From NCBI GenBank assembly GCA_021613535.1, contig CP075493.1:14384001-14448000 (forward strand): a stretch of 64,000 nt of DNA. Direction: 5' to 3'. Positions 1 through 64,000 of the stretch are shown here, piece after piece. The notes under the pieces were generated by a model. It had not been told where the DNA came from and did no database searches. It saw only the letters and a list, made by a program, of their open reading frames with translations. Numbering within the stretch: position 1 is the stretch's first letter; every line of letters starts with the position of its first letter. This DNA comes from Adineta vaga. Its lineage: Eukaryota; Animalia; Rotifera. The translations under genes were made by a program, and so were the position numbers.

Positions 1-3000
1 ATCAACGAGTATGGTCCATGGCCAGTTTCATACAGTTTTTGATCCTGAAATGTTCCATTTCCATTACCAAATATAATGCTAACAGTATTATCATCATAAT
101 TAGTTACGGCTAGATCTAGATGTTCATCATTATTAAAATTGCCTGATGTCACAGAAGACGGAGTTTTACCGACTGGATAGGTGTTCATAGTTCGAAGATA
201 TTCACGTTCAAAATTAAGCATTACACTAATAGTATTCGCGCCTTGATTGACCAGCACAAGATCCATTCTTGTGTCATTGTTCAAATCAGCTGAAACAGCT
301 GCTACAGGTCTTTTACCAACGTCAAATGTCAATTGAACATCGAATACTTTTTCGTTGTTTGCAAGTAATAGGCCGATATTATCGTCACCATTGTTTACTA
401 TTACTAGATCTTGTATATCATCGCCATTGAAATCATTTAATATGATAAACATTGGTCTCAAGCCGGTCACATATGTTGGTCGTGTTAGAAAGTTTCCTCC
501 ACCAATACCAAGCAGAATGCTGACAGTATTATCACCATAACTAGCCACTGCCATATCTAATAGACCATCATTATTAAAATCGCTTGATGTCACGTATCTC
601 GGATGATAACCGGCTGGAAATCTAGGTTGCATGTGAAAAGTTCCATTTTCATCGGCCAGTAATATATCAATCGTATGAGTACTAAGGCTGGCCACTGCTA
701 AATCTGGAAAGTTATCATGATCGATATAACCTGATACTACAGAGAATGGAGAATTACCAACGGTATTACTCTTTGAAGGCAGGAAAGTTCCATTGCCATT
801 ACCTAGTAGCAAACGTACGCGATTGTCACCATAGTTGGCCACAACGAGATCTGGTTTTTTATCACTATTAAAATCATTTGACGTGATAGACGCTGGAGCA
901 AAACCAACTGCAAAACTCGCTAATTTCTGAAATGTTCTATTTCCATTACCTAATAATATGGTAACGCTATTTTCGTTATAATTGGTTATGGCTAGATCAC
1001 GTTTTGTATCATTATTAAAATCATCAGCTATCACTGCAGATGGTACACTATTTACTGAATAGATCATATGTTCTTGGAATGTTCCATTCTTATTACCAAA
1101 CAGAATACTGAGACTATCATTCTTATAATTACACACAGCTAGATCGAGACAGTCGTCTCTGTCGAAATCATCTGATATTATCGAATATGGACCGATACCC
1201 ACACGATAGATTATTTGTTTCTGAAATGTTCCATCTCCAATTCCAATCAATATGCTTACACTGTTATCATCATAGTTAGCAACTGCCAGATCTACATGCA
1301 TGTCATTATTAAATTTACCCGATACGATAGAACGTGGACCGTTACCAACTGAATAGGATCGTTGAGTTTCAAAACGTCCGAACTCACTACCGAGTAAGAT
1401 GCTGACAGTTTTATCATCTGCATTTGTTACTGCCAAATCCAATACAGTATCATGGTTAAAATCATGTATTGTTACTGATGACGGTTTGTTGCCAGTTGGA
1501 TATGTAGTTTGTAAAAGGAATAATCCACGTCCTTCACCATAGATGACGCTAACAGAATTATCGCCATCATTGACCACCACTAAATCTAATTTTTGATCGT
1601 CATTTAGATCTTGCAATTTTATACAAATGGGTCGCTGACGAACCGGAATAGTGAATAGACCTTGAAAAAATCCTTCACCATTACCGAATAGTACAGCGAC
1701 CTCATTATCTTGCTGAGTTGCCACCACGATATCTATAGTATGATCATTATTGAAATCGCCAATGGCTGCCGAAACTGGTATGTTGCCAGTTTTATAGAAT
1801 TTTGCATCCGAAGTATAGGGTTTGTAGCAGCGTTTTTCTAAAACAAATAATAATAAACTAGTGTGTACTAAAATAGATTGTGAACAATTGTGCCTGCTAG
1901 GTTTGTTGATTTATCATTAAGTTTTATTCCTAAGACAAACCCAAGGATGATCACTGTAACGAACAAAGCAAGTGTTAAGCCGAACGGAATCCCGAATCTT
2001 TTCCTGCTATACCATGGACGTCTTATAAATGAAATGAAGAATTTCATAGAGAATTTAGTCTAAAAAAGATCATGTTAGACTTACTCAGGTTTTGGAAAAA
2101 GTTGCGCACCTAAATGTAAAAAACATCAAAACAAATAATCAATAACCACATGATTACCTTCAAACGGTGGCATCAATAACATTTGCTTTGGTATTATCTG
2201 TTTCAAATGAATTATATGAAGGCCAGGAGCTGGACTAAGTTGTGATTGAACTATCATGCGAGTACCAGGCAAGAGAAGTATTTCATCTTCGGCGACGAAA
2301 TGCGAATGAGCACGTATTGTTCGACCATTAATAGCTTCGACCGAAAACAGTGTACGTTCGCCCGTATTGCCCAAATACGTACTATTCTCGAGTACAGTTA
2401 GTGACGTTGTACACGATGAAAAATGCCACCAAGTTACAGGAGTACCGGGTGGAAAGTCGTCACTGATATTCTTTGTCACTCCGCGCCAAACAGTTGCTTG
2501 TGGAATGCATGGTATTTTGACGAGAGCTGTTAGAAACAGTTTCATATACTTGAAATATGGTCGTAGATTCTGACGATTGTCTAGTTTGAGAGTGTGATTA
2601 AGCATTCTATAAAGACTTTTGTCGGGCTCATCCCATTCAAAGGTGTAGAGACGAATAGCAGCACTCTCATTAGTTGTAAGTCCATCGGATGGTTCATTCG
2701 GCGTTTCGTCAAGTGCTTTTTGAACATAGAGCGGTAAATTATGAAGGATATCATATAATGGAACGCATGCTTCAGCGAGTGATAACAATGGTTCGTTGGC
2801 ATATTCTACAATAGGTTCTACTGTTCTTTTTAAATCATTTATAGTTTCTGTAGTAGAAAAATTGCATTCATCATATCGATAGTTCACCACCCGACAACCG
2901 TTTGTTCCACAGTCGTTTGATATAACATTCAAGTTATTTACTGATATTAACACTTCTGGTTGATTTTGTTGATCAGTTGTTTCTATCCTATTCGAGTGCA

Positions 3001-3142
3001 GATGTAAGTTGTTGTGCTTGTATATTGGATTATGTCTGGTCTGCATATTCTCGTTGACTTCTTTATCGCGATTAATCGATAATTCATCTGCAGCTGCAAT
3101 TGCTACTAGTTCAATTGCACCAATATTACCTTTTCTGTCCAT
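1..3142 (-). CDS. ARTC-family (R-S-E) ADP-ribosyltransferase - transmembrane helix - FG-GAP/VCBS repeat protein (3' end runs out of window)
   Basis: Exons 3142-2158, 2109-2085, 2021-1894, 1837-<1 join in frame (introns 48, 63, 56 bp). ART motifs TVWRGV / FSSCTT / AEDEILLLPG. TM segment RKRFGIPFGLTLALFVTVIILGFVLGI. Then 12 complete ~49-aa repeats of type D(F/L)NND..(L/I)D(L/I)AV...V.+LLG.G.G.F; this exon has no start codon so the ORF track misses it. Confidence 0.88.
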
Positions 3143-4316
3143 AGTTGATTGTATTATGTCAACGCAAACATCAATCTGAGGATACAGAAAAGTAATCGAT
3201 ATCGAAAAAAAAGTCGTTAAAATTATTTGCTTATGCGTATATAGAAGATAGAAATAAATCTATAAAAAGCAATTTCTTTACCTCCGATTGTTTATTATTA
3301 TATTCAGTAATGTACAGGTCGTTTTTATCCTTCAATAATATAGACATAAGCGCAATCAAGCAGGTAAAAAGTCCGCATATAACGTCATTATTTGCAATGA
3401 ATGTATGAGAAGAAAAGAAAAGATTATAGAAGAGGTTTTGTTACATTAACGCAAGCACTTGGTGTATAATCTGTTTTATTCATAATAATTGTTGAACGTT
3501 TCAGTTTCATTTAATAATTGCTCGATTGTGTTTTCTTGCATTCTGTTGAAGCAAAATGTAAAGATTCACTTATTAGACTACATATACATTCCAAAAATCA
3601 ATGAATAATTTACTTAGCATACGAATTATATGTTAGTCTATAGGATATAAACATTATTTTTGGTATTTGATATTAATCTTGTGTTTCATTATCATGTATC
3701 TTTGCTTTATACAGATGAATAGAAAAGTATAGTCTTGTAATTTTTATTTAAAGTGTGGATCGATTAATATGCAAATGAATATGAAAAGCAAGAATACAGA
3801 TAGGTGAGTGAAAGTCGATTATTTTTGTTCGAAATGTGGATATGATGTAAACATCCTCATCTGCACTCATATCTATATATTATTAATATCTAATAAAACA
3901 ACCTCAGATATTGAAAATGTTGGTGTATTCATAGAAAAATTGCCTTGGGAAGCATGAAATGGAAAGCTAATGTAGAGAAATTATAATTACTTTCGAAGTT
4001 CTCGAACATTCTGTTAGAAAAAAAAGAAAACAGCGTCAAATAAGATCTTGTTTTTGTACTAAAGATTCAGACTATACTAATGATGAGAAAAAAAAGCTAC
4101 GAACGAAGTAATTGAAAGTTTTTCATAATATTTGATAGCTTTGTTATTGAAAAGAGTAGAGAGAGAGAGAGTAATAATGGCATTGCTTCGAGTATTTTAC
4201 AATATTGAACGCGTAATAAATACTTTATTATACAGAGCAACTAAACAAACTATTCAAACATTTTAAAAGATTGTCTTAACTACCAACAATTCTTCATATT
4301 TACGTATTGATCTAAC

Positions 4317-5309
4317 ATGTCTCTCTTATCATTGATTGTCATTCAACAAGAAATGACTCGTTATGTTTTGCCCATTTCATTGGGATTCGGTAATATTGGT
4401 AATTTTATTTTAATTGGATATTTTTCTCAAAAACATAATCGTACTAATCCATGTTCACTCTATTTACTTGCTGCTGCCGTCTTCAGTATTGTCGGAAGTA
4501 ATTGGGGTGTCATTCCTACTGTCTACGCTATTTTTTATTCTGATCCACTTTCTAAATCGATCGTTTTGTGCCGTATTCGATTATATATCATTTACATTTC
4601 TGCAATGTCTTATCGTACAATGATCGTTCTAGCTACTATTGATCGTTATGCTTTAACTAATGCTCGATTAATATCTCGAGCTTTTTCTTCAATTACTGTA
4701 GCTAAACGAGCAATTATCATAATGTTCCTATTCTGGTGTATGGCTGGTTTTCATCTTCTCATCTGGCCGACTATTGAATATAATCGATGTTTAGTATACG
4801 GACTCTATGGTTTTGTATACAGTATTATTCAATTAATTACCTTGGGTGTTCTTCCGAACGCTCTTATGATTCTTTTTGGTGTACTCTTAACAAAAAATCT
4901 ACGTCTATCTCGAATTCGCTTTGAAATAGCAACAAGACAAGCAATTAATACAAATAGTAGAGCTCTTCGAAGACGAGATAAGAATTTGATCGTGCTCGTC
5001 TTTACTGAAATTCTACTGACATTCATTTGCACATTTCCCTATTCATTACATGCAATATATACGGCACTCACAAATAATATTCCAAACAAAAGTGTTGAAC
5101 GACAACAAATTGAATCATTCTTATACTTTTTCTTCGTACAATATCTACTCTATTTAGGTTACTCAACAACCTTTTATGGATACATGGCAACATCAAAATC
5201 ATTTCGACGCGAAGTCCAAATTCTCCTGCTGAAACTTATTGGAAAGACATCGACAGCCATAGAACAAGAACCAATAGAAATAAATGTACCACGTATTATA
5301 ACTCGATGA
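4317..5309 (+). CDS. Orphan rhodopsin-like (class A) GPCR, intronless
   Basis: 330 aa, seven hydrophobic segments, GNIGN in TM1, IDRY in TM3, C(T)FPY in TM6, SKSFRRE helix 8. Confidence 0.88.
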   Translation: MSLLSLIVIQQEMTRYVLPISLGFGNIGNFILIGYFSQKHNRTNPCSLYLLAAAVFSIVGSNWGVIPTVYAIFYSDPLSKSIVLCRIRLYIIYISAMSYRTMIVLATIDRYALTNARLISRAFSSITVAKRAIIIMFLFWCMAGFHLLIWPTIEYNRCLVYGLYGFVYSIIQLITLGVLPNALMILFGVLLTKNLRLSRIRFEIATRQAINTNSRALRRRDKNLIVLVFTEILLTFICTFPYSLHAIYTALTNNIPNKSVERQQIESFLYFFFVQYLLYLGYSTTFYGYMATSKSFRREVQILLLKLIGKTSTAIEQEPIEINVPRIITR

Positions 5310-5923
5310 AAAGTTGTTAACTTAATGCTGACTCACACAATGAATACAATAAATATTGAAAATACATACTCAAGATCTCCTATTTATTTCAAAAATCAAT
5401 GTATTTTATCTTGTGAATTTATTAACTATAATGATCTTTATCTATGCATTTTTTTCATTACAATCATCCATATTTAACACAAACTATAGATTTTGATCGA
5501 TGTGATAACGGTTCGTTAATATTCGAAAAAGATTAGTTTATCTATGTAATATCAAAGTTAAAATATATGTCATTTTATTTTCTCCAAAACAAATCTTTAA
5601 TGAAACGTATTCAGTTGTCTCTTCAGAAATTCTAAGTATTTTATTCAATAAAACTAGATTGCTAATCGCTCCTAACAAATAAAGTCTTTTGACTTTCTTT
5701 TTCTTCATTTTTAAATCAATCTTCAATAGATTTGTTGAATCTTAATCCTAAAGTCTATAATCATAACATTTTGTACTGTTATCTTTCGATGCATTAATCC
5801 GTATTTCTATATGACAAGAGTAATAATACTAGAAAATAAAGATTATGTTCTTTTTTGTCAAATAGTTCTCAGGATAAATAAATATATCAAAATCAAACGT
5901 ATAGAATATCACTTGAATCGACG

Positions 5924-7304
5924 ATGATGGTGGTGAAGTTATTTTGGTCAATAATCATTGTATCTCTAACTACAATAGATGTATATGGAATGGAATGTCC
6001 TCCAACGAGAGCCTCCATACAACATCTTTTGGATGAAGCTTATATTCCTGGAGCTGCAGTCATCGTTGTTAATTCCACTGACATCGTCTATGAACAAGGA
6101 ATTGGTTATCAGTCTCCTCTGATTTCAAAAGATCGTCGATCTATTGATCCTTCAACATCAATTTTTGTTTTAGCCTCGATTTCAAAAACATTTGTTGGTG
6201 TAGCAGCAATGCAAATGGTTGAATCACATCATCTTAATCTTGATCTCGATATTAATCAATATCTATCACCTGAAATGAAAATTATTCATCCACGTTATCC
6301 TAATATTACAATTACTACGCGACATCTACTATCTCATATGGCAGGTATTGGACAACATCCTACCGAAGAATTTAAACTCTATGTTCCGGGTGATGATTTT
6401 ACTAAGAGAAAATTTAGTGATGTGATAAAGATGTATTTAAGTTACGAGGAAAGTTGGTTACCTGTACCACCTGGTCATATAACATATTATTCAAATATAG
6501 GAAATGGTTTAGCTGCACATATTATTGAACGTTTAGCGGGAATATCTTTTGAAGACTATGTTCGAGAGAAAATATTAAAACCTTTAGATATAGATGAGAC
6601 AAAAGCAAGTTATCGATTGAGTACTTTTCAAGATAATCAAATGAATCTTGTTGATCATTATATTTACAATGTATCATTCTTAGAAGTTTTTAATCAAATA
6701 GCACCACAATTGAATGCATCTCGAGTAAGTTTCACGTAATAATTATTCTTTTTTGATGATATGTAATTAGATTTATATGTTATATTAGGTAGAAAATTCG
6801 TCTGATTGGCTTTATGTTCCATTGTTTAGCTATAGTATATATCCAGCTGGTATGTTACGGATGTCAGCATATTCACTTAGTAAATATCTTCGATCATTTC
6901 TTAATAATTTTCCTAATCTTCTTCATAATTCACAATCAATCGATGAAATGCTTTCGATTTCTTCTCAAACGAGTTATGTCAATATGACAGATGTTGAATT
7001 TAGTCTTGGATGGTATTGGCAAGTTTACAATGGACGACGTTTTATTGGACATGATGGTTCTTTACCTGGTTTGAGAACAGCAATGATGGCAAATGAAAAA
7101 AGAAATTTAGGTGTAATCATATTAACAAATGGGGATATTACAAGAAATGATATGCAAGCATCGAAAGTCAAAGAAACGATTGTTCAATTGATGACTGAAT
7201 TGTTCGATTGTTTTGAAATGAAGACAAATATTGCTTTTCGGCTACATGCAAACATCAAATACATCGGGTGGACGATTATTAGTCTTTATTTCTGTTTTTA
7301 CTGA
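5924..7304 (+). CDS. Beta-lactamase-related (class C / PBP-like) serine hydrolase with signal peptide and hydrophobic C-terminus
   Basis: Exons 5924-6724 and 6789-7304 (GT-AG intron 6725-6788). Catalytic motifs SISK (SxxK), YYSN (YxN) and GHDG, plus LLSHMAG. Confidence 0.88.
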
Positions 7305-8008
7305 TGATACAATTTGTATATTAGTGATTTTGTGGGTATTGATCTTTTGTAACAACAAGAGATCAAACCAAACTGATCCTTCTATGATATAGTAAGAATA
7401 AGTCATCAACATGAATGAAACATTTTTACAGTTACTTTTACTGCGACAATAAAATGAAAAGAGAAGACTTGGTTGAAGTATATAAAATAAGAACAGAACG
7501 AAAAATATAAACATATTTTTACTGCTGTCTATGCAATCGATGCAAACGGAAGACCATTAGGAAGAGCTATATAAAATATTGTAAACGACAACTTGTTTTG
7601 TTTTAAACAACAAATCATACAGTAATATTAAAAATTCATCAACTATATGAGATATTCAGAGAGTTAATACGTACATCAGACTCTATATTTCTGTTAATGA
7701 TTTTCATCCAACCCCTCTAAGGTAACAAAATACGAAAACAAATATAAAAATTTCTTCTTTCGTTCTTGTTTCAATAGAACATTTCAGTCATTTTTCTTGT
7801 ATTTCACTAGTGAAATTATTATAGGAGACTGTTTTTTTTCTGTTTCAATACCTATCAAATCATATACATAAACATTTTTTTTTCATTTTCCAACTACTTA
7901 AGCTTTTCTAATCGACGATTTTGATCAGCAACGTATTATTGGCGTATGAAACATTCTAAATTTAGAGATAAAAATCATTGTTTCTTCTTTCTATATTAGA
8001 AGTCTTCA

Positions 8009-10251
8009 ATGGCAGAACTTCCTTTTCAAGATAATAACGATGAAATCATTAAACTTTTGGGACTACAAGATGATATTAAATATCAAGTGGTTACTGATCT
8101 GTTAAGCAATGGTCGACAAGCATTACACCAATATCAAGAAGAACTTATTCCCAAAATATACAAGAAAGAAATCAATACTGCCGATGGACAATTGCTTCAG
8201 TTATTAAAACAATACTTCGATCGACAATGGCATAGCCAATATGATTCTGTAAATCAATGGTTCACTTCATTCATTACAACTTATCAAAATGACAAAAATC
8301 CTCAACAATACGAACGTGTTTTAACTCGTACAGCTGAACATGGAAATCGATACATGAAAGATTGTCCAGTATTGTCGATAGTTCTACAACTTCTTTTCGA
8401 ATTAATCGATGATGAATGTTTACTACGAAATACAACGATCTTTGATGATCTTTGGTCGACATTCACGAACGAAGGTTTGAAGTCAATAGGAAAATATTCG
8501 AATTACATGAAAGAGGAAGTGCTGAATGAAGAAGTTGATAAACATCGCTCGACATTATATCGAGCATTGTGTGAATATTATCGTCCACGGTTAGTCGCTG
8601 TACTGAAAGAACATCATATTGGTGAAGAAGAAATTGATCATGATGTGGCACTCGATCGGATTGCTGAGAATGGTGTGAAAAAAGGTATTGATTTGATTCA
8701 ACAGGAGATTGTAACTAGAAAACAAAAACAAGTGCTATCGGAAAATCTTCATTCCAATGAACAAGTCGACGAAAATAGAACACTTCTTAATACATATTCA
8801 ACACCCACCACATCAAACATAGTCGAGGGTATATTTAATAGAACTAACGATGATTTCGCTCAAAATTCAACGGTCGATGCAACAATTAAAGTATATGTGA
8901 AAAGAACTGGTGAAACTATTCATGTTCCAATAACATTGGTATCTACAGTAAGAGATGTGATTAAATATGTCTGTGAGAACAGCGTATGTGATGCGACAAG
9001 TGACTACGACGATTATTTTCTTGCAGGAGCGTCACTTGAAAATGAGCAAATGCTCGATCATAACACGAAATTAGAGGACATGAAGGAATCTTTGGCTGAA
9101 AATCTTGAATTTCAGTTATGTATGAAAACTTCAAAGGAAAGCGAGACGAATAATGGGGATGAAGAAGTAAGTTGTCGTCTATAATACTGCATTGTTCTCT
9201 CAAAGATTATCGTTTAGATTATAAAATCAAATGTACCAATGTTCAACAATGATAAGGGATTTGTTGTAAAAAGTAAGAGTTTCGAAGAACACAACAACTC
9301 AAGTTCCAATCCTGATCAAGCTGCATTTTCATTACCTGTACAAAACAATTTGATTGACAAATGCAGATGTACATCGTCAAAAGATGATCGTACAAATCTT
9401 TTGCAAAAAGAAGATTTAGCTAATAATTATCATCAACTGCAAAAGAAAATTCAAGAACTTAGTGAAAAAATTACTCGTGATCCTATTTTACGTCAAAAGA
9501 TTGTCGAAAAATTCAACGAGATCAATATTGTTGTATGCGGTTCGCCACGAGTAGGAAAAAGTGCGCTCATCAATGCTTTATGCCAACAGAAACTCGCTAG
9601 AACAAGTCCTGGTCTTCATAGTTGTACAAACATTATTTCACCGTATTATTTAAAGGGTAATACCGATCTCGGTGACGGAACAATTAATTATCAATACAAC
9701 TTTTGGGATACACCCGGATTTGAGAATTGGAATCAAGAAGCCATTCGTAGAATTTAAATCTCATCAAAGAAAAACCAAAATCTGATATAATATGTATGAT
9801 CTACTGCGCTTCGCCTGGTTCATTTGCTAATCTCAAACAACTCGAATGGCTATTAGATGAATGTATCGAACAGCATATATTTTGTGCACTTGTATGTACG
9901 AATAAATGGAGTGGATTCAAAGAACAACGAGATGCTGTTATAAAAGATTTCCAACAAATACTCGGAAAAAAGCAAGAGAAAACTGGAGATGAAAATGGTG
10001 TGACGTACTTTGGAAATGTTGGTTTATGTACAAGTGTTAATAGTATTCCAATTAAAGATGAAGAAACTGGTAGAGATTTTGAAGAATCCGGTATTAACGA
10101 ACTTATGTATGGTATTATGAAATCACTTGATGAAGAAAAAGTAGCACAATGGTGTATGCTCGCATTTGAAAAGAAATCTTTCTGGAAGCAGCTTCCTGAG
10201 TATCAGACGCAGTTGAAAAATTTGTGGAATTCTTTTTTTCGAAAGACATAG
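8009..10251 (+). CDS. Copy A: uncharacterised N-terminal helical repeat domain + ubiquitin/RA-like domain + P-loop GTPase; 1-nt frameshift near 9750
   Basis: Intron 9167-9217 joins ORFs 8009 and 9239 in frame. G1 GSPRVGKS, G2 SCT, G3 DTPG, G4-like TNKW. Alignment with copy B shows one base missing at ~9749-9751 (pseudogene or sequencing error). Confidence 0.8.
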
Positions 10252-10745
10252 ACGAATGAAAGAACGATGAAATTAATCTTGAAAGACTGAATCTTTTTAG
10301 TTTGTCTATCTTTATACTCTGATAATAAAAGAATAAAACGTTTTTGACGGTGAATAATCAAACCGAATAAAAAAGTTGTTGAAGTTATTTTTACTTCCAT
10401 ACAACGAATAAAAACAAGAAACAGAGTTTGCGCTATTTGAAAAGTGAAAGAAAGAGAGAAAAATATGAAAGCACTTTTACAAATATTTCTAGAAGCGATA
10501 AAGTTCGTTTTATTTTCTTCTTCTAAAACAACCGAAGAGAGAATTGAATGAAATAATAATAAAGTGTTTCTTTTGCTCTGTGATTTTGTCCATCGAATTT
10601 TTAAACATGTTTTACTGTATTTCATAAATAAATTATTATCAAAACCATCATTCACTTCCGCTTCTAACTACCCACGCGTACGTGTAAATTACTGATTATT
10701 TTAGAATACATAACTATATCGATCAAGATATTCGAGTGTTTTTTT

Positions 10746-13049
10746 ATGGCAGAGCATTCGTATAATAGTATTGAAGATGAGATAATTAATGTCTTACGAC
10801 CACAGGATGATGATATTAAATATCAAGTGGTTACTGATCTGTTAAGCAATGGTCGACAAGCATTACACCAATATCAAGAAGAACTTATTCCCAAAATATA
10901 CAAGAAAGAAATCAATACTGCCGATGGACAATTGCTTCAGTTATTAAAACAATACTTCGATCGACAATGGCATAGCCAATATGATTCTGTAAATCAATGG
11001 TTCACTTCATTCATTACAACTTATCAAAATGACAAAAATCCTCAACAATACGAACGTGTTTTAACTCGTACAGCTGAACATGGAAATCGATACATGAAAG
11101 ATTGTCCAGTATTGTCGATAGTTCTACAACTTCTTTTCGAATTGATCGATGATGAATGTTTACTACAAAATACAACGATCTTTGATGATCTTTGGTCGAC
11201 AGTCACGAACGAAGGTTTGAAGTCAATAGGAAAATATTCGAATTATATGAAAGAGGAAGTGCTGAATGAAGAAGTTGATAAACATCGCTCGACATTATAT
11301 CGAGCATTGTGTGAATATTATCGTCCACGGTTAGTCGCTGTACTGAAAGAACATCATATTGATGAAGAAGAAATTGATCATGATGTGGCACTCGATCGGA
11401 TTGCTGAGAATGGTGTGAAAAAAGGTATTGATTTGATTCAACAGGAGATTGTAACTAGAAAACAAAAACAAGTGCTATCGGAAAATCTTCATTCTAATGA
11501 ACAGACGAATCGAAAGACCATATCGGCTAATGCACATTTAACAGTAACCAAATCAAACGTAGTCGAAGGTAAGTTTAATGAAAGTAATGACTTGAGAATA
11601 ACTATGAATTTTATAGTTGAGGAACCAACGAGTGCTACGATAATCAAAGTATATGTGAAAAGAACTGGTGAAATAATTTATGTTCCAATGAAATTGGTAT
11701 CTACAGTAAGGGATGTGATTAAATATGTCTGTGAGAAAAGTATATGTAATGCAAAAATGGATTACAACAATTATTATCTTATTTCATCGAAAAATGATCA
11801 AATGTTATATGATGATCAGATATTAGATGAAATGAGTATTCGTTGCGAAGAAAGTTTCGAATTTAAATTATGTGTAAAAGCAGCAATGAGACAACAAATT
11901 ATAACTCTTGCACTGACAAAATTAAATATAAGCCGCAATGAAGATGTTTCGAATCTACAAACACCAGTGGATAAAGTAAGTTTTCATCTTTAATATTTGA
12001 TAGTTTCTATAAATATCTGTGTTTAGACTGAAAACTCAAACGAACCGATATATAGCACTGTGCAGAAAAAGTTGTCGAAAATGAGTGAAGTTGATGCAAG
12101 TCCGGATTCAGTACCAAATTCAGTGTCTAGCATATCAAGATTGGCTTTATCGAAAAAAACAAATTCAGATCTATTACAAAAAGAAGATTTAGCTAATAGT
12201 TATCGTCAACTACAAAAGAGAGTCGAAGAAATTAGTGAACAGCTCATTGTTGATCCTATTTTACGCCAAAAGATGTTTGATAAACTGGGTGAAATAAATG
12301 TTGTCGTATGTGGTTCACCACGAGTAGGAAAAAGTGCTCTCATCAATGCTATATGCCAACAGAATCTAGCTGGAACGCATGCTGGTCTTCATTCCTGTAC
12401 GAACACAATGTCGTGTTACTATATGAAAGGTAATATTGAAATTGGTGACGAAACAATCGATTATCAATATAACTTCTGGGATACACCTGGATTCGAGAAT
12501 TGGGATCGAGCAGCTATTCGTACTAGTATGAAACATATTAAGAAGAAGCCTAAGTCAACTATAACATGCATGATTTATTGCGCTTCACCTGGTTCATTTG
12601 CTAATCTTGAACAGCTCGAATGGGTATTAGATGAATGTATAAAAGAGCATATATTTTGTGCACTCGTATGTACAAATAAATGGAGTGGATTCAAAGAACA
12701 AAGAAATGCTATCATAGCAGATTTTCACCAGATACTCGAGAAATATCATGAAAAAACCGAATACAAAAATGGTGTGACATACTTTGGAAATGTTGGTTTA
12801 TGTACAAGTGTTAATAGTATTCCAATTAAAGATGAAGAAACGGGTAAAGAATTCGAAGAGTCTGGTATAGAGGAGCTTATATTTGGTATTATGGAATCAC
12901 TGGACGATGAAAAAGTAGCACAATGGTGTATGGTTGCATTTGAAAATAAATCATTTTGGAAAAAACTCTCTGATTATCCGGCACAGTTAAAGAACTTCTT
13001 AATCAAATTTTTTCAAGGAGCAGCAACAAACGAAACAAATGATAGTTAA
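10746..13049 (+). CDS. Copy B (intact): uncharacterised N-terminal repeat domain + ubiquitin/RA-like domain + P-loop GTPase
   Basis: Intron 11976-12026 joins the ORFs in frame. Same GTPase motifs as copy A; tandem paralog of 8009-10251. Confidence 0.85.
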
Positions 13050-29177: not shown

Positions 29178-29515
29178 TGAAAAAGGGAATGAAAAGAAAA
29201 CGATTTTTGAAATAAAGTTTTAATCGACTCGAACTACGAGAACATGGTATCAGAATATGATTAGTTAAACTATGATCGTGAAATGAGCAGTTCGATATGT
29301 TTCATTCAGACTTACACATACTTTATCAGATGGATTATTTCTCATGCGTAATTTCGAGTTGATGAAGACGGAAGAAAATATGAAAATGACTCATCCATGT
29401 TGCATAAACACATGACACAGTCTGCAGGACAAAAAGAAAAAACCCAGTGCGTTTTTGTTACAAATATCGAGACAAACTGCATTAATAGAAAGAAAGAAAA
29501 AAAACATACTAACTG

Positions 29516-31111
29516 ATGGCAACAATATTATCCTCAACCACAAACAATGATACAGCATTAGAAAATTTCGTTAAATGTGCAATTTGTCTCGATATTTACG
29601 ATGATCCTCGTTTACTTCCATGTTCACATACATTCTGTTATAAATGTATTAAAAAATTATGTGAAAATGATATGGGTCAATGTCCAATGAGAGATAATTC
29701 AATTATCTTCAAACAAACAATAGATCAACTACCAATTAATCGAGTAGCAAAAGATCTCGTCGAATCTTTACACAAATCCTCCTCCTCACAATCTCAATGT
29801 GGATCTTGCCAACAGACTTTATCTGAATTTCATTGTCAAACATGTTCAAAATATTATTGTACAATATGTTTAAAACTCGAACATAATTTAAACAAATTCC
29901 AAACTCATGTTATTCATTTGCTTATAAACGATAATTTCAATCGTTATTGTAAACAACATATGGAAGATAAACTAAAATATTGGTGTGAAAACTGTGAAGA
30001 AATGGTTTGTAGTGATTGTCTACTATTTCAACATAAACAACATTCATTTATTAGTTTAATTGATTTACAAAAAAGAATTCAAATGGAATTACAATCATCC
30101 ATCAAACAGATCGATAGCATGAAGGAAAATATCGACAAATTAAATAATAATACATCAAAAGCTTTGCAAAATCATTATGAAACACATTTACAAACTAAAC
30201 GAAATGTTGAACAAACATTTGAGAATTTACAAACACTTCTCGACAAACGGAAGACAGATTTAATTAATCAAATTACAACCAAAGATTATACAGAACAACA
30301 AATGATACGAGAAGAAAAAAATCATATTGAATCATTTTTCAAAACTCTTCTAATTCGTGAATTATTATTAAAACAATTATTAAAATGTGAAGATTCTTTA
30401 CAATTAATTGAAATGAATGATGATATCATCAATTATAATCAATTTATTGAAGAACAATATCAACAATTTCTTCAAGGACATACTTTTGATCTTCAATATT
30501 TTGTTCTAGGAAATTCATTAGAAAAATTTCAACAACAAATGGAAACTTTTGGAGATGTATCGATTGATACTTTTTTGAATGATATTAATCATATTCGTCC
30601 ATCAACAAAATTATCACAAATATTTGGTGAAGAAAAATCTCAAGAATTCGATGAAATTTATGCATATGGTTATCGATTTGATTTAAAAACTTCAATCGAA
30701 TTCAATGCTGTAAGAATCAAAGCAAAATTAGCTGATTGTAATGTAACTATTCTTATTCTCGATCATAATGATATTCTTCGAGAAAAAAAACTTTTCATTT
30801 CATCGAATAATACAACTACAATGGATTGGATTACAATTTCAATGAAATGTCAAATTGAACATAATTATTGTTTACTTCTATGGACGAAATCAAATGAAAA
30901 ACATATACCAATGATAGCATACAAAGATTCGGATCATAATTTACGTCAAATAAACGAACAAATATCTATTAGAAGTAAACGTGCAGAAATCAATCCATCG
31001 AAAGATCTTAATTTGAATTCAAAGATCAATGTGCTTTATGATGCTTTATATACTACAGATGATCAAAGTGAAAAAGCAATACCTGCATTAGAAATGATTT
31101 TATATATTTAA
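29516..31111 (+). CDS. TRIM/RBCC E3 ligase (RING, two B-boxes, coiled coil, unidentified C-terminal domain)
   Basis: RING CAIC..LPCSHTFC..C..CPMRD; B-box1 CGSC..C..C..C..H..H; B-box2 C..H..WCENC..C..C..H..H. Confidence 0.9.
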   Translation: MATILSSTTNNDTALENFVKCAICLDIYDDPRLLPCSHTFCYKCIKKLCENDMGQCPMRDNSIIFKQTIDQLPINRVAKDLVESLHKSSSSQSQCGSCQQTLSEFHCQTCSKYYCTICLKLEHNLNKFQTHVIHLLINDNFNRYCKQHMEDKLKYWCENCEEMVCSDCLLFQHKQHSFISLIDLQKRIQMELQSSIKQIDSMKENIDKLNNNTSKALQNHYETHLQTKRNVEQTFENLQTLLDKRKTDLINQITTKDYTEQQMIREEKNHIESFFKTLLIRELLLKQLLKCEDSLQLIEMNDDIINYNQFIEEQYQQFLQGHTFDLQYFVLGNSLEKFQQQMETFGDVSIDTFLNDINHIRPSTKLSQIFGEEKSQEFDEIYAYGYRFDLKTSIEFNAVRIKAKLADCNVTILILDHNDILREKKLFISSNNTTTMDWITISMKCQIEHNYCLLLWTKSNEKHIPMIAYKDSDHNLRQINEQISIRSKRAEINPSKDLNLNSKINVLYDALYTTDDQSEKAIPALEMILYI

Positions 31112-50843: not shown

Positions 50844-52090
50844 TTAAAAGAAAACAGTAATTCGTGGATTTGTTGCAAAAATTGCTTTCAAACGTGCGAC
50901 TTCAGCTGGTGTTATTGGATTTCTTTCCAAAGATAAAAATCGTAATTTCTCCATTTTTACTAACACTTCGGCGGGTACAGTAGTTAACTTATTATTATAT
51001 AAAGTGAGTGATTCTAAACTATTCGATAGAGAGGTGACTGTTTCTGGCAGAGTTGTAATATTATTAGATCCCAAAAATAGAATTTTAAGAGGAGGTCTCA
51101 TTTGAAAAAGTGTTGACACATCAGCAATCAAATTATTACTCATATATAAAGTTGATAAGTTCTTATTTAGTAGAATTTGACTTGGAATTTCTCGGAATTG
51201 GTTAAGATTGAAAGAAAGTTTGTCGAAGTTTTTCGAAAAGTTCTGAGGTAAAGAAGAGAGTTCATTATTATCTAAATTGAGTTGACGTAATGCAGTGAGC
51301 TGTGTAAACTCCCAGGGAAATTCTTTTAATTTATCTGCATAAACAGTCAAACTAACTAATTGTGTTAAAGCTAAAAACTGATCTAAAGATGATAGATGTG
51401 TAATGTCAATCGTTAAACTTCTTAGTGAAGGATTCAAACGTTTGAAAAAATCCTCTGGAATCGAAGAATAAGTACTACGACGAAACAAGATCAGAGTTTC
51501 TAAAGGTATAAGAACAAGAAATCCCGGAATATTTTCTAAAGGCGCATCTACAAACAAATATTGAAGTTTGCGCAAGATACCAAAATAACCTGGTAAAGCT
51601 GTTATTTCATCTGCTTTGAATGTCATTGATTGTAACATTTTCAATTGACCAATTCCTGCTGTCATTCTGTTTCCAGCGATATTTAAATTTAATTTTGTTA
51701 AATTTGTCAATTCACTAATTTCTACTGGCACGGGCCATGCAGTTCTACTGTGAATTTCTAGACTTCGAAGATGTATCAGACAATACACTTGTAAAGATTC
51801 AGTTGTGTAAGTTAAATAGAGAGAAGTAACTTGCTTTTGTTGATTAATCCATGCACAATCAGAAGTTGGACAAGCATGTCCTTCATTGACCACAGATACT
51901 TTCGAAGGTAATGACTTAATTACGTCAAGATCATTGGAATATGGCCGACAACTTACAGGAGTTGGATCCACACTTGCAACACTTTCTCCTAAAATAATGA
52001 TAAGAACATGAAAGATAAAATATTTCTCTCTATCTTAACACCTTCAATTTGATAAACCAATAGTAATATCGCTAACACAATTTTTATCAT
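50844..52090 (-). CDS. Secreted leucine-rich repeat protein
   Basis: Signal exon 52090-52042 (MIKIVLAILLLVYQIEG), intron 52041-51989, about 12 LxxLxLxxNxL repeats, no TM segment. Confidence 0.88.
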
Positions 52091-52573: not shown

Positions 52574-54709
52574 ATGTCTTGGAAAGGAAAACTAAGCGGT
52601 ACATCAGGAGATAAATCATCTTCATCGAATACTGGAGGAACAACTCTTCCTGAACCATTAGCTCCTATTGAACTAGAAGGAAATCCTAATTCTACGCCAT
52701 CATCCTCTTTCTCAGTTCGTCAATTGAGATCAGTTGCTTCGTTTGCAGCATTGAGTTCATCAGCTCAACAATGGTCTTACCATAGAGGAGCACAATCTGC
52801 TGAGACAACTACCAAACAAATTGAAGCTGATATGCGAGAAGTGAGAAATATTATTGCAAACTATGCTTTAGAACCATTGGAAATCTTACATCTCGGTAAA
52901 TTGATTAAAAAAAACAAACGTATCTTGATTCTCTTATTTGTGATGCTTTTGTTTAGTGGATCGATGGATTCAACAACTTCTTTATGAATTTCTTCAACAA
53001 CGTGATCATTTCAAACATCAATTAGGTGAAATTCGGTCTAAACAAGAATTATCCAATACACAAATATGATGAAAATGAACGAATGCGAGAAATCTATAAC
53101 GGATATAGAGACTTAGAAAAAGTTCGTGATGGTATTCTTTCACAAGAATCATTCGAAGAATTAAATCATTTTCTCGGACAAATCAATGATACTAATTTAA
53201 ATGAAATGAAAGAAAAATTTCGTTCATTAATTGAAGATTTTGCTCTCTCTGGATATGATTGATCGAGAAGTGAATTCGAGTAATTATGATAATCCTATCA
53301 TTGATATGAAGGACAAATTATTACATTTAAAAAAATCAAATGAAAAAGAATTTCATACGATTTGTATTGTTGGATTGGAAAAAGCAGGAAAATCAACATT
53401 TATAAATGCACTTCTTGGTTATGAACTTCTCGATGTTCCTGGTTTCGATTCACCGATCAAAGAACATCGTGATGCTGGTCTTGAAGCTATCAAATTAGCT
53501 GATGCATTTTTTTTCCTAACAAATGGTCAACAACCAAGTCTAACTGGTCCACAAATTGATTTACTTCAAGAAATTCAACAAAATCATTTCGAAGCTATGC
53601 AACGTGCTTTTGGAATCATTACAAAACTTGATCTTTGTCAAACGGCATCAATATATCAAGAACATTATGATAAAACATTTGCGAAATTAATTGAAAAATG
53701 TTTTAAATCCGATCGTATTTATGCTACGTGTTTACGAATGGAAATTCTCAATGAAAATTCTGAATAATTTCATGTTATTACTCGAAAATTAGAAAAGTTT
53801 GGTGATAATTTAATTCATGGATTTGAACGATGTAAAAATGGTCTAAATCAATTTATTGAATATGATTTACCTAAAACACATTTAAAACAATTAATAGATC
53901 TTGGTAAAATGAAATTAATTCGATTTGTTAATGAACGAATCGATAAAATCAAAGAAAAACAAATTCTACCGGAAAATCTTTCAACAAAATCAATTGATGA
54001 ATATCTTTCACAGAAACATATGGAAAATTGGGATCGAATTTATTCTCAAGATATTTTTCAACCAGTTTTTGATCAAGCCAATTATTGGCATACAATGATA
54101 ATAACAAGAGAACGTGCTTTGTTTATTGATGATATTAAACAAAAATTTCATGATACATTTTTTGATTTAACAAAAGAATTTATTCAACGAAAATTTCCAA
54201 TTGAACAATTAGTTTTCGAAACGTATGGTGCATCGAAATTGCAATTAAATATTCATCCAATTGATGATCAAATACGAGAAAAATTATGTTTTGATTTAAA
54301 AAATCTTGTCAATTCAACATCAAATATTCTTGCAGAATATTTATATTATAAATATATTTGTGAATTAGAAAATATTCTTTATAAAATTTCATCACAATTG
54401 AAAGATTTTTATCAAATGAAATTAACTTTAGATAAATGTATTTATGAAACACATGTATTAGTTTTACGTGTTTGTCGACCAGTAATTATTGCAACTTTAA
54501 GATATTCTTATTTAGATTTATCTGTGAAACAAGATGCAGTCAATGAATTGATTTATATTGCACCAATTGTAGCATTTAATATTGCAAATATTCCAAATCA
54601 AGATGATAATGGTGAATTACTTGGTTCACAAATACTTGCATCAGCAGAAGCATTAGCTGATAGAAGTGAAATGACAACATCGATTATTAAAACACTTTTT
54701 AAGAAATAA
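52574..54709 (+). pseudogene. Dynamin-like (bacterial DLP-type) GTPase pseudogene
   Basis: G1 VGLEKAGKSTFINALLG directly abuts G3 DVPG (G2 region missing); G4 TKLD; frame break near 53260; in-frame TAA at 53765-53767 upstream of ORF 53909. Confidence 0.75.
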
Positions 54710-62024: not shown

Positions 62025-64000
62025 TTCATTATTATCATCAATGATATATCTCGATATTTCTTCTTGAATATAAGAATACGAATCATCCAGTTTTACTTTT
62101 TTTACCATTCTTCAGATCATGTTCGATGTTTGCAAATAGACTTTTTCTTTTGTGAACACTTGAGGATGATAACGATGTATTTAGAAGTTCTTGGTGTTGT
62201 TCTTTTGTCTTCAGATCATTTGAAAGGAGATATTTAGATTCATGCACCATTACTACACAATGATCAAACACCAGTTGTTTGATTTTCCCACATAATCGTT
62301 CTTTTGTGGCATCACCAAGTGATGATTGAGTAATCCAGCGAATTTTAAACATCCCATCGAGGAATGAAGAAAAAAGAAAAACCGGATCTTTGTATAGATT
62401 GTAGAACTTTTTGTTTGTTTTAAAATCGACATTAATATTAGTAAGATTCACATCCATTTGTTTGAGTAAACCACCAAATCTCGATAATAATGAATTTAAT
62501 AAACCTTCACATAATGATGTAGTATATTGTTCATTATTCTTGTCACTGACTAAATCCAAATAAATGGCCAAAATACTTGGTGCCACAATTGAAATTGATG
62601 GAGAATTTTGACATTGAGTAGCTGTTGTTGCTTGTGCAAATAAACAAAATAAATCGACAAATTCTCGCAACATTGTTATATCACGTGTATTTAAACATAA
62701 ATGTTTGTATTTAAATTGACCTAAAATATCATTTAATTCAATAGTTGGTATAGTAAGAATTCGTTCGACAGTCATAAACTGTGAATTCCACCTTGTAATG
62801 ACAGCACGTGGGATTGATACTTTCATCAAATCTAATTTTTCTGCAAATTTAGTAGATGTATGTGCAAGTTTTGCAATAGCAGAAACCTTTTCCAATGCAT
62901 TCACAATTGATTTGGCCTCTTTCAGACCGTCTTTGACAACGAGTTGGATTGTATGTACGAAACAAGGAATTCGAAATATTTCACTATTTTCCATTAAGCG
63001 ATTTATTGATTCTTGGATAAGATCTTCAGTTGCTACATCAGAGGTTGTTAATATATTTGTTGTTGATAATTGATCAACTGGATATTCATATTCATCACTT
63101 AATGTTCCATCATCATTTGTATCAGAATCATTTTCACCTTCATCAATTCCATTACCATTATCTTCAAAGTACTTCTCAAAGCCAGGATTAATAATATTTT
63201 GAAAAGCACTAATATTATTTGCTGCATTGTCAGTAACTAAACGAACAATTTTGTTTTTTATTCCGAATATACTAACGATTTCTTCATATTTTTCAAGTAA
63301 TAATGATCCAGAATGAGTACCCCATAGCGGCACAAAGCATAGAACATATATTTTAAAGTTACCACCAACGATTGCATGAGCTATAGAATAGGTGATCTAT
63401 ATTGAAGCATTTATTAACTATAATCCTACCTGTTGCAGCAAAAACAAATCTCATTCTTCTGTCACTCCAAACATCTAATGCTAATGATAAAAATGTAGCT
63501 GTTAAACAAAATATCATTAAATGGTCATGCATTTTGTCGATCAAATTGGGAACTATTTTTCGAGTTATAGTTCGTCGATTTACAACGGTAAATTTGGAAT
63601 CAATTTTTTGCATAAAACCAATGAATGCTGGACGTTCTACAATTGACAGTGGCAAACCCTAGGTAATAATTAAATCATTGACAATAGCCAAAGATAATTC
63701 CATTTGTCGAGGATGATTTGAACCATAAGATGCACGATTCGGTGAACCACTTTTTCTTGAAAAATCATTAGTAATTTTGTTGCTTTGTACAGTTGAGTCG
63801 ACCTTGTCAGATAGAGTCAACCATTTTTCATATTCTTCTTTATGATATTGACGAGCATGTCGAGTAAAGTTCGAGGTAACTCCTTGCTTGTCTATAACTC
63901 TTTTGGATTTCTTGCATAACAAACATTTAGCAGACCACCTATCCTTGTCAACTTCAGTTTGAAGATCGTCAAAGAATTGATCACGAGCAGTTTTAAATAC
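62025..64000 (-). mobile_element. hAT-superfamily transposase with BED zinc finger, inactivated
   Basis: BED finger CLLC..TSNFTRH..YH, first catalytic D in LALDVWSD, second in VTDNAAN, CFVH, TRWNS; intron 63381-63429; in-frame TAG at 63659-63661; frameshift near 62090; C-terminal dimerisation domain missing. Confidence 0.88.

Follow-up and report, generated by a model that had tools for sequence, protein, structure and literature searches.

A spliced gene joining an ADP-ribosyltransferase, a predicted membrane helix and FG-GAP repeats in the bdelloid rotifer Adineta vaga, a candidate receptor-like enzyme

Gene structure and splicing

We analysed a stretch of 64,000 nucleotides (nt) from the bdelloid rotifer Adineta vaga (assembly GCA_021613535.1, contig CP075493.1, positions 14,384,001 to 14,448,000), hereafter called the window. 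At its start lies a minus-strand gene that joins an ADP-ribosyltransferase (ART) domain, a predicted membrane helix and an array of FG-GAP repeats, and whose product may be a receptor-like enzyme. The features of this gene are as follows.

3142-2158, 2109-2085, 2021-1894 and 1837-<1, minus strand: whole ART-helix-FG-GAP gene, four exons, 991 stop-free codons
3176-3200, minus strand: possible splice or trans-splice acceptor, a pyrimidine tract plus CAG in frame with the ATG, read from the sequence; a contig of run X12 ends at 3176
2822-3142, minus strand: 5' part of exon 1, encoding a variable N-terminal tail, amino acids (aa) 1-107, from the ATG at 3142
2158-2821, minus strand: ART domain in exon 1, aa 108-328, cholera-toxin-like R-S-ExE type (Pfam PF01129)
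2485-2483, minus strand: R220 of the R-S-ExE motif
2419-2417, minus strand: S242 of the motif
2290-2288, minus strand: E285 of the motif
2284-2282, minus strand: E287 of the motif
2110-2157, minus strand: intron 1, 48 nt, GT-AG, phase 1, position common across the family
2085-2109, minus strand: micro-exon 2, 25 nt, linker (sequence and RNA-type contigs)
2022-2084, minus strand: intron 2, 63 nt, GT-AG, phase 2 (sequence and RNA-type contigs)
1894-2021, minus strand: exon 3, with the basic motif PWYSRKR (RKR at 2005-1997) and the predicted membrane helix (core 1981-1925, aa 351-369)
1838-1893, minus strand: intron 3, 56 nt, phase 1, GC-AG in the window and GT-AG in another allele
1-1837, minus strand: exon 4, with 12 complete FG-GAP/VCBS-type repeats of 49 aa and the beginning of a 13th, truncated by the window end

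An earlier, sequence-only reading of this stretch had proposed that the four exons splice in frame, and had named the junctions 2158/2109, 2085/2021 and 1894/1837 for checking in transcripts. The proposal was borne out by a 1841-nt contig of run X6 (record 26), which covers 818-2825, skips all three introns and joins all three junctions. Contigs of X10 and X12 also join 1837/1894, and that of X11 joins the first two junctions only. The splice evidence comes from one study, to which these four runs belong; their status as RNA was guessed, and the guess is backed by the intron skipping and by cover that ends at 3176. Three other runs (X15, X17 and X18) gave only fragments that cross no junction. 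The 3' end of the gene lies beyond the window, where one RNA contig extends 433 nt further.

Intron 3 of the window starts with GC, a point absent from the earlier reading. This donor has a weak consensus; no other donor that would give an intron of roughly the usual length preserves both helix and frame, and a GT nearby, at 1868, yields no open frame. A DNA contig from another study (X8), which spans 1200-3400 unspliced, has a canonical GT at 1893-1892 (on the plus strand, a change of G to A at 1892). Exon 3 of the window is matched letter for letter by the X6 and X12 contigs, and the GT allele differs there at eight places; since contigs carrying the haplotype of the window are spliced, the GC allele is probably spliced too. 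None of the 49 allelic codon changes creates a stop. The changes are silent in 6 of 7 cases in the ART domain, in 3 of 6 in the covered repeats and in 3 of 7 in the linker and helix (4 of 7 alter the residue), and in the N-terminal tail 1 of 6 is silent and 5 of 6 alter the residue. We regard the spliced fusion gene as confirmed.

Two side observations concern the splice signals. The donor at 1893-1892 is a GC/GT polymorphism, with contigs of both exon 3 haplotypes spliced, and a GC donor occurs at intron 1 of one locus (L008) of the survey described below. The acceptor-like tract at 3200-3176 (minus strand), next to which a short out-of-frame ATG reading frame follows, could mark a trans-splice site or an upstream exon; bdelloids use trans-splicing.

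Enzyme domain, membrane helix and repeats

Exon 1 matched the Pfam ART family (PF01129, E = 9e-8), and the motifs that had been described as intact were found at aa 219 (WRG), 242 (SSC) and 285 (EDE) and are conserved in the family. The AlphaFold run that had been suggested as a check recovered the ART fold with a predicted local distance difference test (pLDDT) of 85.9, and R113, S135-S136 and E180 of the modelled domain lie on strands E109-115, E135-138 and E180-183. Its fold, and the position of R, S and the catalytic E on the three strands that carry the motif, place the domain in the ARTC type, and the EDE at its catalytic loop is the ExE of arginine-specific ARTs. The model gave a best Foldseek E-value of 7e-12, and its structural matches were ART2.2 (Z = 17.4), HopU1 (16.4) and the toxin/immunity pair 6drh (16.2), with XopAI and ExoS also among them; a search of PDB sequences with the domain found no match at E<=1. 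R, the first S and both E residues were jointly kept in 109 of 124 ART domains (R 123/124, catalytic E 123/124, the E at position -2 121/124, S 112/122). According to the passages used here of a 2010 review (PMC3102197), R-S-ExE is the mark of arginine-specific ARTs, and in five enzyme pairs only the ExE member modifies arginine, the hydrolase or DNA-modifying members having QxE. The motifs suggest that the enzyme is very probably active and, with less assurance, that arginine is the likely acceptor of ADP-ribose.

The fold and the R-S-ExE motif are shared with the vertebrate ecto-ARTCs (ART1, ART2.2; PF01129), with a root-mean-square deviation of 2.8 over 190 residues for the Z of 17.4, although the window ART is only 17% identical to them. 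The vertebrate enzymes are glycosylphosphatidylinositol (GPI)-anchored or secreted according to the same part of the review (PMC3102197), whereas the rotifer protein has an internal helix followed by more than 600 aa, with no C-terminal GPI position after the ART, a predicted cytoplasmic ART and a large, variable C-terminal domain. The fold is likewise shared with the bacterial arginine-type effectors HopU1, the 6drh toxin, ExoS and Vis (Z = 12.8-16.4), which act inside cells (PMC3102197, in the passages used), as predicted for the rotifer ART. These effectors are delivered into target cells, whereas the rotifer ART is encoded by an intron-bearing animal gene with a membrane anchor. PARP16/ARTD15 is a membrane-anchored mono-ART with a cytosolic catalytic domain in the part of the source drawn on here (PMC3372510), but it belongs to the diphtheria-toxin-like clade, is tail-anchored and without a large outer domain, and is a single gene, unlike the rotifer family.

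Membrane topology was assessed from hydropathy and charge counts. RKR at aa 343 precedes the only strong hydrophobic stretch of the protein, aa 351-369 (Kyte-Doolittle 19-mer 2.63; next 1.25). Among 35 models the excess of lysine and arginine lies on the N-side of the helix in 32, on the C-side in 1 and is equal in 2. No signal-like N-terminus was seen in 32 chosen homologue models, several of which have only 25-30 aa before the ART. PAN, LCCL and LamG domains, which follow the helix in relatives, usually lie outside cells, and LRR_6, kinase, Ras and UEV domains usually inside. The N-side charge, the homologue N-termini and the cytosolic domains of soluble relatives point together to the type II topology that had been proposed, which we consider highly probable, with the enzyme inside the cell; the internal helix, the positive charges before it and the want of a clear cleaved signal peptide are those of a type II single-pass protein.

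Exon 4 matched FG-GAP_3 (E = 2e-60), and its 12 full repeats with the start of a 13th agree with the count of at least 12, forming about two propellers, that had been given before. Repeats of about 49 aa with four strands each and a DxNxDxxxD loop are those of FG-GAP/VCBS-type propellers; a structural model (pLDDT 91.7) supports the prediction of tandem beta-propellers, about two in number, and the loop motif makes the repeats candidates for calcium binding. The named best matches were bacterial FG-GAP/VCBS proteins and rotifer proteins (31-44% identity); Foldseek matches were generic multi-propeller proteins of low identity, uninformative on the ligand. In the turn of the repeats N-G-[TS] outnumbers D by 21:7 in the 12 proteins that are rotifer or ART-fused, whereas the ratio is 9:63 in eight bacterial proteins, and this N-for-D exchange creates a glycosylation site. 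Integrin alpha chains have a signal peptide, one N-terminal seven-blade propeller, thigh and calf domains and a C-terminal helix. The window protein is not of that type, as its repeats, at least 12, lie C-terminal of the helix and its best named matches are rotifer and bacterial FG-GAP/VCBS proteins.

The ART-helix family in bdelloids

The AT-rich sequence, the short introns and the list of database matches all indicate bdelloid DNA. Among the 120 listed of 219 database matches, 52 of the 53 with a named organism were from the bdelloids Rotaria, Adineta and Didymodactylos. The names in the databases are automatic, for example NAD(P)(+)--arginine ADP-ribosyltransferase. An Atlas cluster of 138 ART plus FG-GAP proteins, found with the homologue P0033 as query, has Rotifera as its commonest phylum. 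One of the 53 matches was labelled Sphagnum; P0008 and P0482, which carry this label, lie within the rotifer ART family and are probably rotifer contamination of moss assemblies. No second ART was found within the 64-kb window.

A metagenome survey (best 80 of 132 kept) gave 76 loci, which were reduced to 41 distinct ARTs. Intron 1 lies at the same position with GT in 37 of the 41 distinct loci and with GC in 1. The exon with a W-x-K/R basic motif and a hydrophobic helix was present in 27 of the 30 distinct loci with at least 450 nt downstream, compared with 5/793 and 0/266 in the controls; a looser test gave 29/30 loci and 63/793 control stretches. In gene models with a single ART and at least 120 aa after it, a helix lies no more than 70 aa from the ART in 35 of 45. 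The ART and helix thus form a cassette, and its C-terminal partners vary: FG-GAP, LamG, PAN, NHL, LCCL, haem peroxidase or a Cys-rich region without a Pfam match.

In a quick tree of 64 ART domains the outer-domain labels cluster above shuffles and still need 16 changes (minimum 9), and one clade with 96% support mixes LamG, NHL, FG-GAP, LCCL and PAN. Approximately unbiased (AU) tests on 52 rows rejected a single clade for LamG (P = 0.005) and for FG-GAP (P = 3e-5). A candidate intron of 40-75 nt joins the helix to the outer domain in 12 of 23 loci; all 12 (FG-GAP, LamG, PAN) have a phase-1 candidate, 2 have a phase-2 candidate as well, and none has one in phase 0. The phase-1 candidates in all 12 loci fit exon shuffling at a shared intron, and outer domains were likely exchanged at this position.

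Some arrangements were noted beside the typical ones. L034, L036, L043-L046 and L058 are tandem ART copies on one contig, without a convincing helix exon. In L052 and L053 an ART-helix-PAN gene is paired with an ART-helix gene carrying an unassigned outer domain. P0032, P0113, P0114 and P0120 combine an ART with haem peroxidase, the helix being present or absent in the gene model.

Soluble fusions and bacterial relatives

A full HMMER scan gave 422 clusters (50% identity) at E<=1e-30, and 143 new representatives (P0361-P0503) were examined, with 150 of 3301 matches listed. Of these representatives, 67 have at least 120 aa beyond the ART, and in only 2 of the 67 is a helix close by. Among 58 hand-picked long relatives we found 30 with LRRs, 7 with NHL and 2 with kinase domains (one with MLKL_N), and single cases of TPR, MACPF, Ras, UEV, Kelch, PfkB and an adhesin head; of 10 representatives looked up, 7 were bdelloid and 1 was labelled Sphagnum. 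These soluble bdelloid fusions look like an intracellular sensor-effector repertoire with the ART as output. In a tree of 89 rows with an actinobacterial root, all 47 membrane rows fell in one clade (99% support), which takes in 5 models without the helix and 3 TPR-ART proteins as well and is nested among the soluble fusions. As similarity to the query guided the choice of the membrane rows, further membrane clades could exist.

The closest non-rotifer sequences among the matches listed are actinobacterial (30-33% identity over 90% of the domain, E to 1e-28). In these the ART lies C-terminal to a domain named uracil-DNA glycosylase (UDG) by the sources, and one has a Macro domain. Such UDG-like plus ART proteins are widespread in Streptomyces and Kitasatospora, and a search with the actinobacterial domain gave no named organism outside the actinobacteria among the best 120 of 974. 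They may be a nucleic-acid-sensing conflict system. Those of Streptomyces, Nonomuraea and Embleya have the same WRG, SSCT and ExE motifs as the rotifer ART; they are soluble, with the ART C-terminal and no membrane helix expected, whereas the rotifer form has a helix. The loci L001:3213-5618, L002:2897-4606 and L003:2813-4612 encode a UDG-like domain with an R-S-ExE ART, with a Macro domain in L001.

Neither the 36 candidates from a pattern scan of GTDB genomes nor the 67 from viral contigs proved to be ART relatives; the scan is insensitive, since tblastn found the actinobacterial relatives. In phages tblastn found none. Judged from the best matches, with the ART near actinobacterial proteins and the repeats near bacterial FG-GAP/VCBS proteins, both modules look bacterial in origin, as had been suggested.

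Relation to published work

The passages used here of the 2010 review (PMC3102197) state that vertebrate arginine-specific ARTs are all ecto-enzymes, with no intracellular one characterised, and that such ARTs are seemingly absent from insects, worms, plants and yeast. Enrichment of 'ADP-ribosylation' in rotifer stress transcriptomes is discussed in the part drawn on of PMC12220480 as PARP and DNA repair, and the part used of PMC10809525 likewise treats it as PARP biology. In a different annotation, 542 A. vaga genes have this Gene Ontology (GO) term and 431 have the arginine-ART term, and the enrichments may come partly from the rotifer ART family. No match to the family was found in one supplement of PMC10809525 or in the desiccation GO file of PMC11258130, and the portion of the main text of PMC11258130 drawn on here makes no mention of ARTs. 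The ART-helix-outer-domain family is undescribed in the literature searched, and ART surveys outside that search may mention rotifer ARTs. The domains and the logic of receptor enzymes are known; a cytoplasmic arginine-type ART with exchangeable outer domains was not found in that literature.

Other genes in the window

The remaining genes of the window were assigned mainly by Pfam.

4311-5306: single-exon seven-transmembrane (7TM) receptor, adjoining the beta-lactamase-family gene
5882-7301, plus strand: beta-lactamase-family gene (PF00144), two exons, possibly horizontally acquired (Pfam)
8000-13046 and 53231-54706, plus strand: two septin/MMR_HSR1-like GTPase genes in tandem that contain long reading frames without annotation; also a dynamin-like GTPase
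13116-63396: flavoprotein, GH38, Na/H exchanger, DAGAT, kinase, GH31 with trefoil, 7TM (Pfam)
29513-31108: RING-B-box gene (Pfam)
50847-52034: LRR gene (Pfam)
62086-63396: DUF659 gene (Pfam)

Interpretation of the gene product

We propose, with a probability of about 0.55, that the product of the fusion gene is a receptor-like ART, with ligand-binding propellers outside the cell and an ADP-ribosylating enzyme inside. A ligand, probably microbial or environmental, would bind the predicted outer propellers; clustering or a shift at the membrane would free the cytoplasmic ART, and the enzyme would spend NAD+ and ADP-ribosylate a cell protein, probably on arginine. We hold it a little better than an even chance that ligand binding controls the enzyme, clustering being one possible means; that the protein serves to sense microbes is put forward tentatively. 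As to its origin, one soluble ART-sensor fusion probably gained the micro-exon and the helix exon, and outer domains were then likely swapped at the shared phase-1 intron. The exchange of outer domains across the family strengthens the receptor idea.

Receptor kinases, receptor guanylate cyclases and Toll-like receptors have one helix, variable outer domains, a conserved inner domain and lineage-specific expansion, and are type I proteins with signal peptides. The rotifer ART differs from them in its N-in, type II order and in having ADP-ribosyltransferase output.

Several points weigh against this proposal. It draws on the architecture and on domain exchange, and the activity, ligand, substrate and localisation in it are all predicted. 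Ten of the 45 single-ART models have no helix, and in one cluster of loci a convincing helix exon is missing. Several of the helix-less models read as if two small exons had been skipped with the frame kept (153 nt in total), and such models may represent soluble isoforms or faulty annotation. The trees were built by a quick method from rows picked for their similarity to the query; PAN monophyly was not rejected (AU; P = 0.076), FG-GAP may be the ancestral outer domain, and in 11 of the 23 loci no intron candidate of 40-75 nt was found between helix and outer domain. Class I haem peroxidase and NHL domains are not confined to the outside of cells, and the preference for N in the repeat turns could also stem from AT-rich codon use. 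Potential glycosylation sites number 255 in the outer domains (160 expected), and the ART domain also has about twice the expected number (87 against 42), so that the overall count is uninformative on topology. The N-terminus of the window protein contains a borderline hydrophobic 10-mer (2.3), which one allele weakens by placing Glu at residue 9, and the in-frame acceptor at 3177-3176 sits where the RNA contigs end, so that an upstream exon is possible. As to the former statement that there is no N-terminal signal peptide, no clear one is seen in the window or in the 32 homologues.

The suggestion that the protein is an innate-immune effector met with mixed evidence. In a supplement of Nowell 2024 (PMC11258130; by numbering Supplementary Data 3), the arginine-ART class GO:0003956 comprises 431 A. 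vaga genes and 366 A. ricciae genes. Under fungal infection it was enriched among down-regulated horizontally acquired genes (A. vaga, 6/431 at 7 h with a false discovery rate (FDR) of 4e-5 and 19/431 at 24 h with 1e-12; A. ricciae, 8/366 at 24 h with 0.02), and it was absent from the up-regulated sheets of the same file, which is a further point against our proposal. These counts are for a family-level class that pools membrane and soluble forms, and for one fungal pathogen. The family responds to infection, yet it is not an induced antifungal effector class.

An unlikely but serious alternative is that the protein is a membrane-tethered enzyme that transfers no signal, with the outer domain only placing or sticking it (in adhesion, in a membrane domain, or in the lumen of gut or vesicles) and with the ART constitutive or under cytoplasmic control, like the tail-anchored PARP16. 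That precedent exists (PMC3372510, in the part drawn on), the coupling element of our proposal is only hypothetical, and the single helix tolerates the allelic changes described above. However, a conserved enzyme with at least seven exchangeable binding folds fits sensing better than anchoring, as do the soluble relatives built as an enzyme plus LRR, NHL or TPR.

It is quite improbable that the protein is a stored weapon, whose outer domain binds a microbe and whose ART is released by cleavage or in vesicles to poison it, in the style of polymorphic toxins. The closest solved folds include bacterial effectors, the named FG-GAP relatives are mostly bacterial surface-type proteins, and down-regulation under a fungus would fit constitutive antibacterial genes, a general idea in the part of PMC11258130 drawn on here that does not concern ARTs. 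On the other side, the predicted topology keeps the enzyme on the cytoplasmic side of the rotifer cell, and the models scanned contained no domain for proteolysis or translocation. In polymorphic toxins, moreover, the stalk is constant and the toxin varies, the reverse of what is seen here.

We see only a slim chance for the same receptor layout with another chemistry, NAD+ hydrolysis or nucleic-acid modification leading to NAD+ loss or cell death. Some ExE-type enzymes modify RNA, and the closest non-rotifer relatives seen are the actinobacterial ARTs fused to the UDG-like domain, one with Macro. Against this, the E at -2 is kept almost throughout the family, and it is the ExE members of the enzyme pairs that modify arginine, the others having QxE (PMC3102197, passages as above).

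The opposite topology, an ecto-ART like the vertebrate ARTCs with the propellers in the cytoplasm, is very improbable: the best structural match is the ecto-enzyme ART2.2, and the borderline N-terminus, the possible upstream exon and the glycosylation sites in the ART domain would fit it, but the charge excess, the N-termini of the homologues (short in several), the C-terminal PAN, LCCL, LamG and Cys-rich domains and the soluble relatives joined to cytosolic domains all speak for the reverse. Finally, an artefact or dead fusion, whether two separate genes or a pseudogene whose splice site is broken, is suggested only by the weak GC donor of intron 3 and the GT at 1868 that opens no frame, and is largely refuted by the spliced contigs of the same haplotype, the GT of another allele, the stop-free allelic changes and the Atlas cluster.

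Significance

Beyond the single gene, it is possible, although we would not yet call it probable, that bdelloids have a sensor system built around a toxin-type ART, with hundreds of genes, exchangeable sensors and both soluble and surface 'receptor ARTs', and thus with cytoplasmic arginine-specific ARTs in animals. One animal group has hundreds of genes of the arginine-ART class, one clade of which has the receptor layout, in contrast with the picture in the passages used of the 2010 review (PMC3102197). If the proposal is true, the ART would take the role held in other immune receptors by TIR, kinase or death domains. If its activity follows ligand binding, ADP-ribosylation would stand beside phosphorylation and cyclic-nucleotide synthesis among the direct outputs of single-pass receptors, and bdelloids would have a testable route for sensing microbes with horizontally gained parts.

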